A DNA stretch of 64,000 nt from NCBI GenBank assembly GCA_041640295.1, contig JBEQAR010000004.1, positions 3,128 through 67,127 on the forward strand. Direction: 5' to 3'. The notes under the pieces are model-generated. The model was not told the DNA's origin and searched no databases. It saw nothing but the letters and a program-made list of their open reading frames with translations. This document shows positions 2,850 through 39,310 of the stretch, in pieces (the first letter of the stretch is position 1; each line of letters begins with the position of its first letter). Origin of the DNA: a bacterium. Lineage in GTDB: Bacteria > Patescibacteriota > Minisyncoccia > UBA6257 > HR35. The translations under genes and the position numbers were made by a program.

Positions 2850-5800
2850 ATGGCAATTACTAATCAGGAAGAAATCAAATCAATTTTAATTAAGTTGTCA
2901 TCGCCGGAAGAAATTTTGGAAAATTCTTATGGTGAAGTTTCTAAACCAGAAACGATAAATTATAGAACTGGTAAACCAGATAGAGATGGTTTATTTTCTG
3001 AAGTTATTTTTGGTCCCTTAAAAGATTTTGAATGTTCTTGTGGCAAATATAAAGGTCAACAATTTGCTGGTTTAAAATGTGATCGTTGTGGGGTTGATGT
3101 TATTAGATCTTATGCTCGAAGAGAACGATTGGGACATATTACTTTAGCTACCCCTATTGTTCATATTTGGTTTTTAAAAGTTTATCCCTACCCTATCTCT
3201 TTGATTTTAGATATTCCTAATTTTCAATTAGAAAGAGTTGTTTACTATTCAGCTTATATTATTACTAAAGTAAATGAAGAAGAAAAGGAAAAATTATTAA
3301 AAAATATTGAAAAGGAATATAAAGAGAAAATTAAAGAAACTAAAAATAAAAAAGAAATTGAAGAAACATTTAAAAAGATTAAAGAAGAAATCAATGGCTT
3401 AAAAGTCAAAAGAGTGCTTTCTGATGTTGAATATTATCTTCTCTCCAAAAAATACCCCAATATTTTCGAAGTGGGTATGGGAGCAGAAGTAATTAGAAGA
3501 TTTTTAGAAGAATTAGATTTAAATTCTGCTTACAAAGAAGCTTTAGAAAAATTTAAAAAGGCTAAAGATATTGAAAAGAAGAGGCTTTCGTTAAAGCTTA
3601 AATTACTTAAATCTTTTATTAAAAATAATATTAGACCAGAATGGATGGTTCTAACTATTTTACCTGTTATTCCTCCAGACTTAAGACCAATTGTTACTTT
3701 AGAGGGAGGTAAATTAGTTTCATCAGACCTTAATGATCTTTATAGAAGGATAATTAATCGAAATAACCGCTTGAAAAGATTATACGAAGTTAAAACTCCA
3801 GAAATAATTATCAGAAATGAAAAAAGAATGCTTCAAGAAGCTGTTGATGCCTTATTGGATAATTCTCTTAGAAAAGAGAAGCTAATTGTTTCTAAAAGAA
3901 AAGTTTTAAAATCATTAGCTGATATGTTGAGAGGTAAACAAGGAAGATTTAGACAGAATCTCTTAGGAAAGAGAGTTGATTATTCTGGTAGAGCGGTGAT
4001 TGTTGTTGATCCTAAATTAGCCATTGATGAATTTGGTCTACCTAAAAAAATGGCTTTAGAAATTTTTAAACCATTTATTATTCATGAATTATTAGCTAAA
4101 GAAATTGCTGGTACAATTAAACAAGCATTATATTTAATTGAATCCGAAGATCCCGAAGCCATCCAAGCTTTAAATAATATCATAAAAAACAAATATTGTT
4201 TATTGAACCGAGCACCAACTTTACACCGCTTAGGAATTCAAGCATTTAAACCAATTCTTGTTGAAGGAGTAGCATTAAAAATCCCACCATTAGTTTGTAC
4301 TGCCTTTAATGCTGATTTTGACGGTGATCAAATGGCAGTTTTCTTACCTTTATCTGAAGAAGCTCAAAAAGAAGCAAAAGAAATAATTTTAGCTTCTAAG
4401 AATCATCTTAAGCCAGGCACTGGCGAAATAATTACTAATCCAACTAAAGATATTATTTTGGGTATTTATTACCTTACGCAAATTCTTAAAAATCGAAAAG
4501 GAGAAAATAGTGTGGTCTATGATGGGCAAGAAGCTAAAATTCTTCTTGAACACAAGGTTATTGATTTACAAGCTGAGATTTTGGTTAAAAATTGTAAAAA
4601 TGAAAAAAATATAAAAACCAGCGTTGGAAGAATAATTTTCAATGATGTTTTACCCGATAGTTTTCCTTTTGTTAATAAGACTGTTGATAAAAAAACTATT
4701 GTTAAGATCATTGGAACAATTTATGAACAATATGGTGCAGAAAAAACCTCGTTAATTTTAGATAAAATAAAAGAATTAGGTTTTCACTACGCAACCTTTT
4801 CTGGAATTTCTTGGTCATACAGCGATTTAAGGGGTATTCCTAATAAAGAAGACTTTATTAAAGAAGGTTATGAAAAAGAAAAAGAAGCAATCCATCTCTA
4901 TGAAACTGGTTTTATTGACGAAAGAGAGAAAAAAATAAAAATTATTGATGTTTGGTTGGAAATTGTTGCGAAAATTAACAATAGATTAAAAGAAATTTTA
5001 GAAGACGATAATAATCCTAAAAGAATGATTGATTCTGGTGCTCGTGGTTCTTATACTCAATTAGGACAAATGGCAGGAATGAAAGGTTTGGTAGAAAATC
5101 CAAAAGGTGAAATTATTGACTTGCCTATTATCCATTCTTATAAAGAAGGTTTGACTGCTTTGGAATATTTCATTAGTACTCACGGAGCTAGAAAAGGAGC
5201 TTCAGATACAGCACTGAAAACAGCTCGCGCTGGTTATTTGACAAGAAGAATGGTTGATGTTGCTCATGATGTAATTGTGATTGAAGAAGATTGTAAAGAT
5301 GAAGAAGGAATTGTTTTAACAAAGGAAGAAGCAGAAGAAGTTGGTGAAACATTAGCAAGTAGAATTTTCTCTCGAGTTTCTTTAGAAACTATTGTTGATA
5401 AAGATAATAACATTATTGTTAATAAGGGTGAATACATAACTAAACAATTAGCTGAAGAAATAGAAAAAAATACCAATAAAATTAGAGTTAGGTCACCATT
5501 TACTTGCAAGTCTTTATTTGGAATTTGTGTTAAGTGTTATGGATTTGATTTAGCTTACAATCAGCCTGTTAAGGTTGGTACACCAGTAGGAATTATTGCT
5601 GCTCAATCAATTGGTGAACCGGCAACGCAGTTAACAATGCGTACTTTCCACTTCGGTGGTGTTGCTGGCGCTGGAGATATTACTCAAGGTGTACCTAGGG
5701 CAGAAGAACTTTTAGAAGTTAGAAAACCTAAAAATCAATGTATTTTTTCACCAATTAGCGGAAAAATCGTTCATTTAGAAAAAGTAAATAAATATTATAA

Positions 5801-28548: not shown

Positions 28549-28839
28549 ATGGCAAGTCAAAACACAGTAAAAAGAGAAGCTTTGGCTCAAAAAATCGCCG
28601 AAAAATTTGATTTACCCAAAAAAACAGCGGTCGAAATATTAAATTATTTTGTTGAATTGGTTTCTTCCAATCTTAAATCAGGTAACAAAGTTAAATTGCC
28701 AGGTTTAGGAACTTTTAAGGTTAGAGAAAGAAAGGCAAGAACCGCTATTAATCCAAAAACAGGCGAAAAAATTACTGTTCCTGCTACACGCGTTCCTAAA
28801 TTTACTCCAGCAAAAGAATTAAAAGCATTATTTAAATAA
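28549..28839 (+). CDS. hup: DNA-binding protein HU
   Basis: 96 aa. GLGTFKVRERKARTAINPKTGEKI arm motif. Confidence 0.9.
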   Translation: MASQNTVKREALAQKIAEKFDLPKKTAVEILNYFVELVSSNLKSGNKVKLPGLGTFKVRERKARTAINPKTGEKITVPATRVPKFTPAKELKALFK

Positions 28840-29637: not shown

Positions 29638-29649
29638 AAGTCGGCCATT

Positions 29650-29825
29650 AAATCAACCGCGAACTAGTGCAAACGGCGATAATAAACGCGAACCAATGCG
29701 AACAAGTGAGTATAATCACTACCCATGCAAACAAACAAAAGTTCGCAGGAGTTCGCGTGAAACCTTACCTGACGCCCGCCTATCTGGCGGACAGGGCAGG
29801 CAGAGTTTGCAGTAGTTCGCATTAT
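29650..29825. repeat. GC-rich palindromic repeat element: left arm RCGAAC units, right arm GTTCGCR units (intergenic copy)
   Basis: Left arm has ccgcgaac, gcaaac, acgcgaac, gcgaac, gcaaac. Right arm has gttcgca, gttcgcg, gtttgca, gttcgca. Central GC palindrome gcccgcc...ggcggac. GC far above the flanking ~28%. Confidence 0.7.
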
Positions 29826-29835
29826 ATTATCAAAA

Positions 29836-31165: not shown

Positions 31166-32110
31166 ATGGAAAAATTTTTACAAGAATTCAAATTACAATT
31201 TCAATTCAAACCAGTAATAGAAAATTTAAATAACTTTAAAGGTAAAAACAAATTCTTAATCGTTGGGATGGGTGGTTCTCATTTAGCAGCTGATTTATTA
31301 AAAATAACCCATCCCTTTTTAGATTTAACTATCATTAGTGATTTTAATTTACCTCAATTGTCAGATTTATTAGAAAGGAAAATTATTTTAATTTCTTATT
31401 CTGGAAATACTTTAGAAACTATTAATGCTTTGCAAAAATTAGAACGAACCAAAATTAAACCTTTGATGATTTCAGCTAATGGCTTACTCTTAGCTCGAGC
31501 GAAAATTAATAAATATCCTTATATTGAATTACCAGAGAAAAATTTACCACCTAGATTAGCGATTGGTTATCTTTACTTAAGTCTATTAAAAGCTATTAAT
31601 GATGAGAATTCTTTAAAAAAGATTAGTGGAGACTTAATAAAATTTAATTTTTCAAAAATTCAAAAAAGAGCTTTAACCTTGTCATTGAAATTGAAAGGAA
31701 AAATTCCTATTATTTATTCATCTTTTATTAATTATCCGTTGGCTTATAATTTTAAAATAAGATTTAACGAAACAGCGAAAATTCCAGCTTTTTGCCATTA
31801 TTTACCCGAAGCGAATCACAATGAAATTCAGGGTTTTTATAGGTTGAAAAAAATTTTTTATTTTTTGCTATTAGAAGATAAAACAGACTCTAAAGAATTA
31901 ATAGCAACATTCAAAACAATTAAGAAATTTTTAAAAGATAAAAAATTTTTTGTTGAAAGTTTAACTCTTGATGAAAAAGATGTATTTAAAAAAATTTTTT
32001 CAGCAATTCATTTAGCGGATTTGTTAAGTTTTTATCTAGCGAAAATTTATAAGTTAGATCCATTATCTACACCATTTATTGATGAAATTAAAAAAAGATT
32101 AAAAATTTAA
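31166..32110 (+). CDS. SIS-domain bifunctional phosphoglucose/phosphomannose isomerase-like protein
   Basis: IVGMGGSHLAADLLK SIS motif. 314 aa. Directly upstream of the glucokinase. Confidence 0.55.
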   Translation: MEKFLQEFKLQFQFKPVIENLNNFKGKNKFLIVGMGGSHLAADLLKITHPFLDLTIISDFNLPQLSDLLERKIILISYSGNTLETINALQKLERTKIKPLMISANGLLLARAKINKYPYIELPEKNLPPRLAIGYLYLSLLKAINDENSLKKISGDLIKFNFSKIQKRALTLSLKLKGKIPIIYSSFINYPLAYNFKIRFNETAKIPAFCHYLPEANHNEIQGFYRLKKIFYFLLLEDKTDSKELIATFKTIKKFLKDKKFFVESLTLDEKDVFKKIFSAIHLADLLSFYLAKIYKLDPLSTPFIDEIKKRLKI

Positions 32111-33273
32111 TGGGATTTTTCTTAGGCGACATTGGCGGAAGTAAAACAAGATTGATTTTTCTTGATTCAGAGAAAGATTTAAAAAAGCAAAATTTGAAAA
32201 TTTTTAAAACCCCTCAGAAGTATAAAGAATTTTTGGAATTATTAAGAAATGAGTATGTGGTACGAATTAATAGAAACCACAATAAACTAATACAAACAGA
32301 TAAAAATACTAACAATAATCGCGACTCTATACAAAAAAATAAAGTTCGCATCAATTTGCGTGAAAGTTCGCAATGGTTTGCGGCAAAGAAAACGAGAAAG
32401 ACTGTTTTTGGGTTTGCAGGTATGCTTGATGAAAAGAGAGAAAAATTAATTTATGCTCCGAATTTAAAAGATTTTGAAAATAAAAATTTAAAAAGAGATT
32501 TAGAAAAAATCTTGGAAACAGAAGTTATTTTAGAAAATGATGCTACTTTAGCTGGTTTAGGAGAAGGGAAATACGGAGTAGGTAAAAATTTTGATGTTTT
32601 TGGATATATAACTTTGTCAACAGGAGTAGGAGGCGCAAAAATTGTTAAGACGCGAACTAATACGAACTATAGCGAACTGATGCGAATAGATACTACAACA
32701 CGAACGGATACGAACAATGATAATAACCACGAACCAATACGAACAAATAATAGTTTATATGAGTTCGCGCCTAATGATAATGTTCGCAATAGTTCGCGAG
32801 AAAGTTCGCAATGGTTCGCGGTTGATATAAATAAATTTGGTTTTGAGCCTGGACACTCTTTTTTGTTATTAACGCAGACAGCCGCGGACTTAACGCAGAC
32901 ACTCTTTAACAATGTTCGCGGCAGTTCGCGTATAGTTCGCGGTAGTTGGCGTAAAAACTTATTTGAGATCGAAGAACTGCTTGGTGGAGAAAATATTGAG
33001 AAAACTTTTGGTAAAAAACCTGAAGAGATAAAAGACAAAAAATTTTGGAACTTTTATCATCAAATTCTTTCAATTTTTTTAATCAATGTTTCAATTTTTT
33101 GGTCTGTTGATAAAATAATTTTAGGCGGCGGAATTACAAAAAGTTTAGATTTTAAAAAATTAAATTCTCTAGTGAACAAACTCCACCCCTTGCCGATAAA
33201 AATACAAATAATAAAATCAAAACTCGGTGAAATGAGTGTTTTATATGGAGGATTAGTAAGGAGCGGTATCTAA
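32110..33273 (+). CDS. glk: ROK-family glucokinase carrying two in-frame GC-rich repeat insertions
   Basis: ROK motifs MGFFLGDIGGSKTRL, ENDATLAGLGE, GYITLSTGVGGA, ILGGGI. Two insert segments of about 45 aa and about 100 aa encode low-complexity peptide, including a duplicated RESSQWFA. Confidence 0.7.
   Translation: MGFFLGDIGGSKTRLIFLDSEKDLKKQNLKIFKTPQKYKEFLELLRNEYVVRINRNHNKLIQTDKNTNNNRDSIQKNKVRINLRESSQWFAAKKTRKTVFGFAGMLDEKREKLIYAPNLKDFENKNLKRDLEKILETEVILENDATLAGLGEGKYGVGKNFDVFGYITLSTGVGGAKIVKTRTNTNYSELMRIDTTTRTDTNNDNNHEPIRTNNSLYEFAPNDNVRNSSRESSQWFAVDINKFGFEPGHSFLLLTQTAADLTQTLFNNVRGSSRIVRGSWRKNLFEIEELLGGENIEKTFGKKPEEIKDKKFWNFYHQILSIFLINVSIFWSVDKIILGGGITKSLDFKKLNSLVNKLHPLPIKIQIIKSKLGEMSVLYGGLVRSGI
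32265..32400. repeat. GC-rich GTTCGCR-type repeat element, in-frame insertion 1 in glk
   Basis: Right part has gttcgca, tttgcgt, gttcgca, gtttgcg. Left part has degenerate caaac/aacaa units. Confidence 0.6.
32650..32960. repeat. GC-rich inverted tandem-repeat element, in-frame insertion 2 in glk
   Basis: Left arm is 8 copies of RCGAAC spaced by a ~10-bp period (with two ~18-19-bp lapses). Right arm is 5 copies of GTTCGCR at 10-12 bp spacing (one ~19-bp lapse), then ttaacgcagaca x2, then 3 more GTTCGCG at 10-11 bp. Arms are reverse complements. Confidence 0.75.
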
Positions 33274-33318: not shown

Positions 33319-33540
33319 ATGTCAAGAATAATTTTTGACCCAAAGATTTTAAGAGGGAAGCCGATTATTAAAGGAACAAGAATTTCTGTTGATTTAATTT
33401 TGGAACTTTTGGCTAATAATTGGTCAATTGAAGATATTTTAAAACAATATCCCCAACTAAAAAAACAAGACATTCTCGATGCTTTAAAATATTCTGCTAA
33501 GAGAATTAAGAGAGAAGAAACTATTTTAATTTCTAAATGA
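33319..33540 (+). CDS. DUF433 family putative antitoxin
   Basis: 73 aa. FDPKILRGKPIIKGTRISVDLILELL matches the DUF433 signature. 4-nt overlap with downstream ORF. Confidence 0.65.
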   Translation: MSRIIFDPKILRGKPIIKGTRISVDLILELLANNWSIEDILKQYPQLKKQDILDALKYSAKRIKREETILISK

Positions 33541-33857
33541 AATTTCTTTTGGATGAAAATATTCCTTTTGAACTTCAAAATTATTTAGCAAAATATAAAA
33601 TTTCAAGCTCTCATCTTTTAGGTTTGAAACTGAAAGGACTAAGCGATGAGGAAGTTTTCGATTATGCACAGAAAAGAAAATTTATAATAATTACTTTCGA
33701 TAAGGATTTCTTAAATGAGAAATTTTATACCCAATCCCATTACGGAGTAATTTATATTTCACCTAAAATCAAAGATTTAGATAAATTAGCAGAAGCAATT
33801 TTTAAAACGATTAAAAGTTATAAAAGTTTTAAAAACAAAGTTGTTATTATTCAATAA
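33537..33857 (+). CDS. DUF5615 (PIN-like, Mut7-C-type) putative toxin
   Basis: MKFLLDENIP start and acidic PIN-like residues. Canonical partner of DUF433. Confidence 0.6.
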   Translation: MKFLLDENIPFELQNYLAKYKISSSHLLGLKLKGLSDEEVFDYAQKRKFIIITFDKDFLNEKFYTQSHYGVIYISPKIKDLDKLAEAIFKTIKSYKSFKNKVVIIQ

Positions 33858-33926: not shown

Positions 33927-33998
33927 CGGGCTGTGGTGCAGTGGAAGCACGCTGGCTTCGGGTGCCAGAGGTCGTGGGTTCAAATCCCACCAGCCCGA
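33927..33998 (+). tRNA. tRNA-Pro (anticodon CGG)
   Basis: Manual fold: acceptor CGGGCTG/CAGCCCG (7 bp), D-arm GTGC-AGTGGAA-GCAC, anticodon arm CTGGC-TTCGGGT-GCCAG (anticodon CGG, G37), T-arm GTGGG-TTCAAAT-CCCAC, discriminator A. No encoded CCA. Confidence 0.85.
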
Positions 33999-38584: not shown

Positions 38585-39310
38585 ATGAAACTTTATATCG
38601 TAGCAACGCCGATTGGGAATTTAAAAGATATAACCTTAAGAGCTTTGGAGGTTTTAAAATCTGTTAATTATATTGTTTGCGAAGATACAAGAAGAACAAA
38701 AAAATTATTAGATCATTATGGAATTAAAAATAAAAAATTAATTTCTTATTTTGCACCCCGAGAAGAAGAGAAGATTCCTTTGATTTTAAAAATTTTAGAA
38801 AAAGAAAATGTTGCCTTAGTTGTTGATGCGGGAATGCCGGGAATTTCTGATCCTGGTTATAAATTAATTAAGGCTTGTTTAGAGAAAACGCGGATTTACG
38901 CGGATATGACGAAAGATAATCAGCGTCTATCAGCGTCGAATCAGCGTGAATCAGCGTTAATAGAAATAGAGGTTTTACCGGGACCATCAGCATTTTTAAC
39001 TGCTCTTATTGGTTCAGGACTGCCAACTGATAAATTTTTATTTTTAGGATTTCTACCGAAAAAGGGATTAGAAAATTATTTAAGTAAATTTGAAAATTTA
39101 GAAGCAACAATAATTTTCTATGAATCGCCCCAAAGAATTCCAAAAACTTTAGATGTTATTGAAAAAGTTTTTGGAAATGTTGATATTGTTATTGCCCGCG
39201 AAATCTCGAAAATTTATGAGGAATATATAAGAGGAAAATTAAGCGAAATCAAAGAAAAATTAAAAAACAAAAAATTAAAAGGAGAACTAACTGTTATTTT
39301 TAGAAAATAG
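38585..39310 (+). CDS. rsmI: 16S rRNA (cytidine1402-2'-O)-methyltransferase with in-frame repeat insertion
   Basis: MKLYIVATPIGNLKDITLRALEVL...VCEDTRRT and PGISDPGYKLI motifs. About 24 extra aa (RIYADMTKDNQRLSASNQRESALIEI) sit between the KACLEKT and EVLPGPSAF blocks that are contiguous in E. coli RsmI. Confidence 0.85.
   Translation: MKLYIVATPIGNLKDITLRALEVLKSVNYIVCEDTRRTKKLLDHYGIKNKKLISYFAPREEEKIPLILKILEKENVALVVDAGMPGISDPGYKLIKACLEKTRIYADMTKDNQRLSASNQRESALIEIEVLPGPSAFLTALIGSGLPTDKFLFLGFLPKKGLENYLSKFENLEATIIFYESPQRIPKTLDVIEKVFGNVDIVIAREISKIYEEYIRGKLSEIKEKLKNKKLKGELTVIFRK
38885..38962. repeat. GC-rich inverted tandem-repeat element (ATCAGCGT type), in-frame in rsmI
   Basis: Left arm ACGCGGAT x2. 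Right arm ATCAGCGT x4 at 10-11 bp period. Arms are near reverse complements (ATCCGCGT vs ATCAGCGT). Confidence 0.7.

Follow-up and report, generated by a model that had tools for sequence, protein, structure and literature searches.

The stretch of DNA analysed here (64 kb, hereafter the window) is AT-rich, with a G+C content of 27.8%, and derives from a Parcubacteria-like bacterium of the candidate phyla radiation (CPR). Its rsmI gene contains, within the reading frame, a short foldback element that is built from repeated 8-mers (Table 1). The left arm of the element holds two ACGCGGAT units and the right arm four ATCAGCGT units. In 64 kb, ACGCGGAT occurs exactly twice, both times in the rsmI insert, and four of the five occurrences of ATCAGCGT stand here in tandem with a spacing of 10, 11 and 10 bp; the number expected by shuffling is 0.52 per window, and five were reached in 0 of 100 shuffles. 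Tandem Repeats Finder detects a period of 10 (4.3 copies) as well as one of 21 (1.9 copies, 89% match), and this 21-bp, or 7-codon, period of the right arm is visible in the peptide as NQRLSAS/NQRESAL. The arms are complementary at seven of the eight positions per unit, with a central G/A mismatch, and the segment from 38887 to 38958 is predicted to form a single long, imperfect hairpin in which the 8-mers are paired and the spacers of 2-3 nt remain as internal loops, closed by a loop of about 13 nt that is free of an open reading frame (ORF). The calculated energy is -29.5 kcal/mol for the RNA (z -4.81) and -17.9 kcal/mol for the DNA (z -3.98), in both cases matched by 0 of 200 shuffles, and the three folds calculated for the element gave z-scores of -4.8, -4.0 and -3.7. 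We assign to one family all elements whose inverted arms each hold at least two ACGCNGAT-like 7-8-mers at a period of 9-13 bp with the polarity ...GAT / ATC..., and the rsmI element shows all of these features.

The insert comprises 78 nt, and the single one of its three sense frames that is free of stops is the frame in use. E. coli RsmI (PDB entry 5hw4) and the entry 3kwp align to residues 2-100 and 125/126-238 of the encoded protein, and their own chain numbering is unbroken at this point. Two structural genomics entries for separate domains, 3hh1 (N-terminal) and 3fq6 (C-terminal), end and start on either side of the insert, and as these isolated-domain entries stop and begin around it, the insert must sit in the interdomain linker of RsmI. 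In the AlphaFold model the flanking domains are well modelled, and residues 105-122 have a predicted local distance difference test score (pLDDT) below 50. The length of about 110 of the 120 best RsmI homologues is 217-223 amino acids (aa), versus 241 aa for the window protein, and relative to the nearest uninserted orthologues (218 aa) the net gain is 23 residues. In a DNA alignment, the nearest uninserted orthologue (L123) reads GAG-CAG-GGA-ATT at the insert site. An initial annotation of this DNA had described two left and four right units on a 10-11-bp period, arms that are near reverse complements, and an in-frame insert of about 24 aa between blocks contiguous in E. coli RsmI. These points are borne out by the exact matches, shuffles and Tandem Repeats Finder, by pairing at seven of eight positions within a strong hairpin, and by the alignment with 5hw4, respectively.

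No conservation of the insert at the protein level was found in the rsmI orthologues. Among the 120 best homologues, only P0002 (L001), P0005 (L002) and P0014 (L128) also carry an insert at the same codon boundary, and the inserted peptides are unrelated in sequence. In DNA, the insert of P0002 is made from CGAAT/ATTCGGG units and that of P0005 from ACGCTAAT, GCGAAT and ATTCGCGT, and the insert of P0014 reaches 193 residues. P0001 and P0002 are sisters, 87.6% identical outside the insert, and their sister clade is uninserted. The content of the insert turns over much faster than the rsmI gene itself, under repeated filling of the site or repeated loss alike. Note that a further RsmI homologue, P0028 (243 aa), has a C-terminal extension, RTTHNERRTNKNSFIASYQLQSFSAS, that in the protein appears to represent another translated array, here at the 3' end of the gene.

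The units of the rsmI element are closely related to others. ACGCGGAT/ATCAGCGT, CGCGAAC/GTTCGCG, ACGCAGAC, CCGAAT/ATTCGG and GCGAAT/ATTCGC are one or two substitutions apart, and the same holds for ACGCGGAT, ACGCTGAT, ACGCAGAT, ACGCAGAC, ACGCGAAT, CGCGAAC and CCCGAAT. All of these are treated here as one ACGCNGAT-like motif superfamily, present in many phyla, and on sequence similarity the CGCGAAC, CCGAAT and CGCAGAC units are taken as variants of it. The family is special neither to the window genome nor to coding DNA, with the same subtype in helix 45 of 23S rRNA and related arrays that elsewhere are mostly intergenic. The initial annotation had rightly seen in the rsmI insert one instance of a family with inverted arms of short units on a roughly helical period. 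It had also listed the rsmI array under a 'different unit', which holds insofar as it is a sequence variant, but not in the sense of an independent one, as it lies one or two substitutions from other units of the ACGCNGAT-like superfamily. An encoded helix-turn-helix or ribbon-helix-helix partner, as had been envisaged, did not emerge: no candidate in the window could be tied to the element.

We scanned a collection of 185,579 species genomes (596 Gb) for the pattern ATCAGCGT-N2-3-ATCAGCGT and obtained at least 120 matches. Note that about 550 chance matches to this pattern are estimated in 596 Gb, so that the match count is uninformative and the surrounding architecture was used instead. Two or more left-type units were present upstream in 37 of the 115 matches listed, versus 8 of 115 in the downstream control, and in many of the matches listed a third unit is present and an inverted ACGCNGAT array lies immediately upstream. 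The organisms among them are mainly Cyanobacteria, Chloroflexi/Anaerolineae, Planctomycetes, Verrucomicrobia, Bacteroidetes, Acidobacteria and CPR, and in the other phyla the related arrays are mostly intergenic. The same loci contain 32 more periodic arrays off the seeded sites, most of them with related units such as ATTCGCG, ATCTGCG, ATCCGTG and AATCTGTG.

The ACGCGGAT/ATCAGCGT subtype, including the same G/A mismatch, is found in frame in recG of a CPR locus (L009) and in uvrB of a Patescibacteria genome (L019), at a point where the window's own uvrB is empty. A Parcubacteria 23S rRNA (L051) holds the subtype as well; aligned with Infernal, it falls within the terminal loop of a hairpin, positions 1205-1226 of the large-subunit (LSU) model, that we take to be helix 45. 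Here an insertion of about 130 nt (L051 5084-5220) has a core of four ACGC(G/C/T)GAT units facing four ATCAGCGT units, with a fold of -45.6 kcal/mol (z -6.6), and it looks like an ORF-less intervening sequence. Helix 45 is a classical site for intervening sequences in 23S rRNA (PMC4990558), and for CPR rRNA genes short non-intron insertions have been reported at such sites (PMC11270868). The units are nearly invariant when the copies in the window, L019 and L051 are compared, with about 6 differences at 176 positions by manual count, and the spacers vary in sequence and in length (2-4 nt). An Rfam scan of the window and eight loci returned only a tRNA for the window, and only LSU rRNA and a tRNA for the loci. 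In pyrG (CTP synthase) of L001 (5904-5944), four ATCCGCGT units in frame, with no inverted partner, directly precede the conserved ERHRHRYE and add IRVNPRNQSALIRV to the protein. Two further observations concern the layout of arrays. In L113 (3978-4042) the polarity is reversed, with two ATCAGCGT units followed by two ACGCTGAT units, unlike nearly all other elements. In L027 (about 3810-3900), L041 (1,735 nt of upstream context) and L097 (upstream of 1841), from Bacteroidetes and Acidobacteria contigs, long tandem arrays of heptamers or octamers (GTGAACG/GTGAATA, CCAACTG/CTATTG and CTCAACTT) lie flush against ATCAGCGT arrays and resemble the cyanobacterial short tandemly repeated repetitive (STRR) sequences and the heptamer repeats adjoining the Coxiella intervening sequence.

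Clustering of 3,760 ORFs from 120 loci among the matches listed yielded a single informative recurrent neighbour, a GxxExxY protein of about 125-135 aa, the clusters of response regulators and ABC proteins being generic. The assignment is to TIGR04256, with E-values down to 3e-42, and to the Pfam family PDDEXK_3 (PF13366), and every copy from those loci has periodic inverted arrays at both ends. A single left arm and a single right arm enclose the ORF in L079, L083, L023, L149 and L128. The last of these is P0014 (L128, 6001-7245), an RsmI of 414 aa with a complete GxxExxY / PD-(D/E)XK domain in frame in the interdomain linker (PF13366, E = 7e-27; TIGR04256, E = 3e-29). Its insert is composed of decayed (A)C(G/A)CAAAC/ACGAAC units, the intact GxxExxY ORF and decayed GTT(C/T)(G/T)(C/T) units, in this order, and arms and ORF together form one insertion with respect to the empty orthologues. 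As read from the sequence, P0014, if translated, would be a methyltransferase with a nuclease domain inserted.

The association was also examined without reference to the arrays, in 80 metagenome loci picked by similarity to the GxxExxY protein alone with a profile from two sequences; 70 of these had both flanks and were analysed for exact 7-mers repeated at 9-12 bp in the 150 nt upstream and the 150 nt downstream. Such repeats were found upstream in 50 of 70 and downstream in 41 of 70 cases, compared to 3 of 70 in a gene-body control. Reverse-complement 7-mers common to both flanks numbered 11.2 on average; when the flanks were paired by permutation, this average fell to 3.1, with 3.9 as the highest value of 200 permutations. 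Upstream, CACAGAT, CGCAGAT and CGCCGAT predominate, and downstream their complements; the class of unit correlates with the similarity of the GxxExxY proteins, the observed difference being reached in 0 of 2000 permutations. A CPR homologue, P0247 (L209), is flanked by ACGCGAAT/ACGCTAAT ... ATTCGCGT/ATTAGCGT, the units of the rsmI insert in L002.

An AlphaFold model of the GxxExxY protein (pLDDT 87) matches lambda exonuclease, Cas4, Hjc and tRNA-splicing endonuclease, and D71, E81 and K83 are invariant, leaving the D...ExK motif intact; by its modelled fold the protein is a PD-(D/E)XK nuclease. A sequence search against the PDB gave only non-significant matches to T7 endonuclease I (E 0.5-0.8), on which we do not rely. 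Pfam gives the function of GxxExxY / PDDEXK_3 as unknown, and so does a survey of the PD-(D/E)XK superfamily, which notes many horizontal transfers (PMC3424549). Transposases of the DDE, HUH or serine type were not found next to the arrays, nor was any convincing other cargo gene between them. Neighbouring genes were also considered as transposase candidates and rejected, as the arrays flank ordinary genes (pyrF, rsmB, ABC ATPases). Two features of the GxxExxY reading frames may be noted. The C-termini of P0251, P0247, P0250 and P0241 are translated from the right-arm array (...NYQRQSAINQRKSA, ...ARTNSRELALD), so that these called ORFs end inside the repeat. L074 (974-1984) has a frame, open from stop to stop, in which a NUDIX-hydrolase-like region is continuous with a GxxExxY domain; a foldback lies upstream and GCGCCTT-type arrays downstream, and this frame may be a fusion or merely an open intergenic frame.

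Further copies of the family lie in the window itself (Table 1). The intergenic copy contains an additional inner GC-rich hairpin, cctgacgcccgcctatctggcggacagggcagg, and is missing from L125, a syntenic contig in which only 25 bp separate dcd from the DoxX-like gene. The ROK-family kinase (32110-33273) has 387 aa versus about 270 aa in its relatives, and three in-frame arrays make up the extra length; the empty site in L125 that corresponds to site 4 reads TTGTTAATTGGCGATTTT. ROK orthologues in other Parcubacteria have differing inserts at the same four loops, with CCGAAT/ATTCGG, ACGAAC/GTTCG or CGCAGAC/GTCTGCG units. Presence and absence between orthologous sites is thereby seen at rsmI, at the intergenic copy in comparison to L125, in uvrB and at the ROK loops. 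Homology extends past the units: at ROK site 1, a stretch of 45 nt is 84% identical to 32777-32821, spacers included (family D5), and 51 nt of the intergenic copy are 71% identical to the ROK copy (family D1). As the sequence in common reaches beyond the units, these are homologous copies and not separate inventions. As an aside, a small ORF at 33537-33857 (106 aa, MKFLLDENIPFELQNYL...), PIN-like or DUF5615 toxin-like by eye, adjoins a tRNA at 33927-33998.

Table 1. The rsmI locus with its foldback element, and further copies of the family (positions of the window)
Feature	Position	Strand	Evidence
rsmI host gene (16S rRNA C1402 2'-O-methyltransferase, 241 aa)	38585..39310	+	ORF; Pfam PF00590; PDB matches 5hw4 and 3kwp; homologues named RsmI
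Foldback element, first left unit to last right unit; translated approximately as TRIYADMTKDNQRLSASNQRESAL	38887..38958	.	Folding; missing in uninserted orthologue L123 (DNA alignment)
Left-arm unit 1, ACGCGGAT	38888..38895	+	Sequence match
Left-arm unit 2, ACGCGGAT	38898..38905	+	Sequence match
Degenerate third left-arm unit, ACGAAAGAT	38909..38917	+	Read from sequence; ACG pairs with part of right-arm unit 2 in the predicted fold
Right-arm unit 1, ATCAGCGT	38919..38926	+	Largely within the loop of the predicted hairpin
Right-arm unit 2, ATCAGCGT	38929..38936	+	Sequence match
Right-arm unit 3, ATCAGCGT	38940..38947	+	Sequence match
Right-arm unit 4, ATCAGCGT	38950..38957	+	Sequence match
Intergenic copy between dcd and DoxX-like gene; left CGCGAAC/GCAAAC/GCGAAC, right GTTCGC(G)/GTTTGC	29645..29830	.	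Sequence, fold
ROK kinase site 1, in frame, mainly right arm: GTTCGC / TTTGCG, four units	32315..32388	+	Sequence; most orthologues without it
ROK kinase site 3, in frame: about eight (G)CGAAC, then five GTTCGC(G) units	32648..32822	+	Sequence; orthologues with other inserts or none at this loop
ROK kinase site 4, in frame: ACGCAGAC / GCGGAC / ACGCAGAC, then three GTTCGCG and GTTGGCG	32860..32958	+	Sequence, fold

We consider it likely that a selfish foldback element is present in rsmI as an ORF-less copy, 'miniature' or relic, that is carried along as a translated passenger and not as a functional part of RsmI. This reading draws on the anatomy of the element, its membership in a dispersed family and its presence or absence between orthologues, on the recurrence of its subtype in further genes and in the loop of helix 45 in 23S rRNA, and on the statistical association of arrays with GxxExxY genes. 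A member of the family consists of two inverted arms, each a short array of ACGCNGAT-like units of 7-8 bp with a period of 10-12 bp, and a long hairpin or cruciform with interruptions forms as each unit of one arm pairs with one of the other. A GxxExxY gene is present between the arms or beside complete foldbacks in full-length members, and short members have a loop only. One such element would have landed in, or been inherited at, the DNA for the linker that joins the two RsmI subdomains. Its survival there can be attributed to a length that is a multiple of three, to the use of the sole stop-free sense frame and to the hydrophilic nature of a 23-residue peptide in a surface linker, and it is this in-frame survival in a surface linker that makes us regard the insert as a translated passenger and not a functional part of the enzyme. 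The peptide would be translated rather than removed. Slippage, as in the 21-bp duplication, probably adjusts the number of units in place, and selection would purge insertions that are out of frame or contain a stop, which would also explain why the same few loops are occupied repeatedly.

Concerning mobility, we hypothesize from the arrangement of genes and arrays that the units are recognised by a protein, for which the GxxExxY nuclease encoded between the arms of full-length elements is the candidate. It may mobilise or maintain the arrays in trans, and the helically phased units may be its binding sites, in analogy to the TnpA protein of IS607 that coats helically phased 9-bp repeats. A more far-reaching proposal, which we make tentatively and with considerable doubt, is that arrays and GxxExxY proteins constitute an unrecognised, phylum-spanning class of mobile elements, in which a nuclease of about 125 aa, with no classical transposase, would coat helically phased 8-bp units and move or home the foldback.

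A number of observations do not sit easily with the interpretation of the rsmI insert as a selfish passenger. In a neighbour-joining tree, the RsmI proteins with an insert do not form one clade, P0005 and P0014 branching elsewhere; the site may have been hit repeatedly, or precise loss of the insert may have occurred on several occasions. Single-arm arrays such as the one in pyrG of L001 exist, so that the foldback is not obligatory. No target-site duplication or defined terminus is visible in comparison to the empty sites in L123 and L125, where the flanks of the orthologues have diverged, and we found no report of transposition, binding or cleavage by any GxxExxY protein. No GxxExxY ORF is present anywhere in the 64-kb window, the link of unit class to protein similarity is small (58.4% versus 55.3% identity), and in L008, L021 and L146 the GxxExxY gene has a complete foldback on either side instead of lying in one loop. 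The latter three points, as well as the frequent occurrence of ORF-less foldbacks beside GxxExxY genes, would be expected if the arrays were hairpins akin to repetitive extragenic palindromes (REP) that spread or persist in another way, and GxxExxY a separate, homing-type selfish gene that lands in or beside them, leaving the rsmI insert unlinked to the nuclease. We hold this to be unlikely in view of the five loci with an ORF between a single left and a single right arm, of the single insertion formed by arms and ORF at the rsmI site, and of the very strong association in the metagenome loci (50 of 70 versus 3 of 70).

The insert might alternatively act at the RNA level, as an intervening sequence whose hairpin is removed by RNase III or other processing, or as a regulator of rsmI translation or stability. 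The strong fold of the sense-strand RNA would suit this idea, as would the presence of the same subtype in the helix-45 loop, a classical site of RNase III processing (PMC4990558; PMC11270868). Nevertheless, the frame is kept and free of stops in every coding copy examined (rsmI in four genomes, ROK at several sites and in several genomes, uvrB, recG and pyrG), which argues against excision because a segment that is removed would need no such constraint. Moreover, the ends are not religated when bacterial intervening sequences are cut, and an mRNA would be destroyed in this way, and the fold energies of ten elements in sense and antisense showed no consistent advantage of the sense strand, so that we judge a role in RNA quite improbable. 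Still smaller is the chance we give to a local, non-mobile origin, in which slippage multiplied a unit of 10-11 bp (or 21 bp) and intrastrand template switching copied one arm into the other. The clear 21-bp duplication in the right arm, the variable number of units between copies, the existence of single-arm arrays and the resemblance of the final 'unit' in ROK copy C to the empty-site TTGGCGA are all in line with such events, and slippage probably does shape copy number, yet it leaves the origin unexplained: the ACGCGGAT/ATCAGCGT pair recurs together with its mismatch in unrelated genes and in the rRNA of different genomes, the copies in the window have spacer and loop sequence in common, and related units flank GxxExxY genes across phyla. 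A benefit for the host, be it through an array of sites bound by a DNA-binding protein of the host, for example a nucleoid or partition factor, or through a useful extra loop of RsmI, would account for units that are far better conserved than their spacers and for the helical period, and a gene of HU/IHF type is indeed present in the window (28549-28839, assigned by eye). It is hardly to be expected, however, that most close orthologues would then lack the insert, that inserts, where present, would be unrelated in sequence, that the sites would be scattered over linkers of unrelated enzymes, rRNA and intergenic DNA, and that the peptide would be predicted as disordered, and we give this explanation next to no weight.

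If the rsmI insert is read as a translated selfish passenger, the variable inserts at fixed loops of CPR housekeeping proteins, as in the rsmI linker and the four ROK loops, would be selfish DNA read as peptide and not lineage-specific functional domains, with consequences for orthology calls, structure prediction and inferences from 'CPR-specific insertions'. This reading would bring together, under one sequence architecture and one little-studied gene family (GxxExxY / PDDEXK_3), three topics that have mostly been dealt with apart: intervening sequences of 23S rRNA, intergenic hairpins of the REP type and palindromic inserts in reading frames. How intervening sequences move has been asked for 30 years, and this question would gain a testable candidate enzyme and a defined DNA substrate, and phased 8-bp units on both arms, kept while the spacers drift, would predict a filament-type recognition. 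A new class of mobile elements, if true, would explain ORF-bearing and ORF-less 23S intervening sequences and the in-frame inserts that lengthen CPR housekeeping proteins, and also many REP-like intergenic hairpins in Cyanobacteria, Chloroflexi, Planctomycetes, Verrucomicrobia and Bacteroidetes. In-frame palindromic repeats, as in Rickettsia, and 23S intervening sequences are already known. In open-access text, with cyanobacterial small dispersed repeats outside the comparison, we found no description of foldbacks of the intervening-sequence type with helically phased 8-bp units in CPR protein genes, of their forming one family with REP-like hairpins between genes across phyla or of an association with GxxExxY genes; nor did that text describe CPR in-frame palindromes, bacterial foldback repeats or GxxExxY with this array architecture. 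A literature search with the octamers led to chance matches only.

Among known systems, miniature inverted-repeat transposable elements share the inverted ends, which in the rsmI copy are arrays rather than a single terminal repeat; such elements have a parent insertion sequence with a recognised transposase, and the only recurrent neighbour found here is GxxExxY, which is not known as a transposase. The arm repeats of the Drosophila foldback (FB) transposons measure 10, 20 and 31 bp. FB and Galileo transposons likewise possess long inverted arms of short tandem repeats with variable arm length (PMC3573991), but they are eukaryotic, on a kilobase scale and have a different or unknown transposase, so that the comparison is restricted to architecture. 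REP and REPIN elements, with their REP-associated tyrosine transposases (RAYT), are likewise abundant short palindromes, mostly located just downstream of genes, often as inverted pairs and occasionally inside genes including repair genes, and the CGTC type is also without a known transposase (PMC3733652). An identity with GTAG or CGTC REPs was nevertheless rejected, as the REP unit is a tagged stem-loop of 20-40 bp and the unit here a non-self-complementary tandem 8-mer (PMC3733652), and the gene associated with the arrays is GxxExxY, with no RAYT gene associated.

The ends of IS607-family insertion sequences (IS1535, IS607, ISC1926) carry several short repeats, often helically phased, that are inverted between the ends, an arrangement also found in the rsmI copy; in IS607 and IS1535 helically phased 9-bp direct repeats nucleate a transposase filament, and there are neither terminal inverted repeats nor target-site duplications (PMC6188088). 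Even the unequal numbers of units, four and two, are the same in IS1535 and the rsmI copy. IS607 elements encode TnpA, a serine recombinase, in some cases together with TnpB; near the arrays examined, no ORF of this kind was found. The GG of IS607 termini and targets is not evident at the rsmI junctions, although the empty rsmI site does read CAGGGA. The likeness concerns mechanism alone, and we speak of an analogy and not of membership. Rickettsia palindromic elements (RPE) are, like the present family, short dispersed hairpins found in frame in housekeeping genes and in non-coding DNA, translated as surface peptides and lacking a known transposase (PMC10969869, PMC3733652), and the rsmI copy is just such a palindromic repeat, in frame in an ORF and compatible with the protein fold. 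By their description, however, RPE are about 100-150 bp long with a family-specific consensus and are confined to Rickettsia, whereas the host of the rsmI copy is a CPR bacterium; no arrays of 8-bp units at a 10-11-bp period have been described for them, and no nuclease-bearing full-length form is known. The intervening sequences in 23S rRNA of Leptospira, Coxiella, Salmonella and others, some with an ORF (S23p / 23S_rRNA_IVP), differ in that they are described as a plain stem, in contrast to the arms here, in which 8-bp units are repeated with a helical period, and in their cargo, a four-helix-bundle S23p instead of a PD-(D/E)XK protein of the GxxExxY family. Likewise, the rsmI copy lies in a protein-coding gene, where it would be translated rather than excised, and does not replace the tip of helix 9, 25 or 45, as intervening sequences do. 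In both cases, however, extended stem-loops are formed from inverted ends, a small ORF is optional, and the elements are sporadic, apparently horizontally spread and inserted where the host molecule tolerates an extension. Direct heptamer repeats have been noted alongside the intervening sequence of Coxiella, and the exact unit subtype of rsmI is present in the helix-45 loop of a Parcubacteria 23S rRNA, a canonical site of intervening sequences (PMC4990558).

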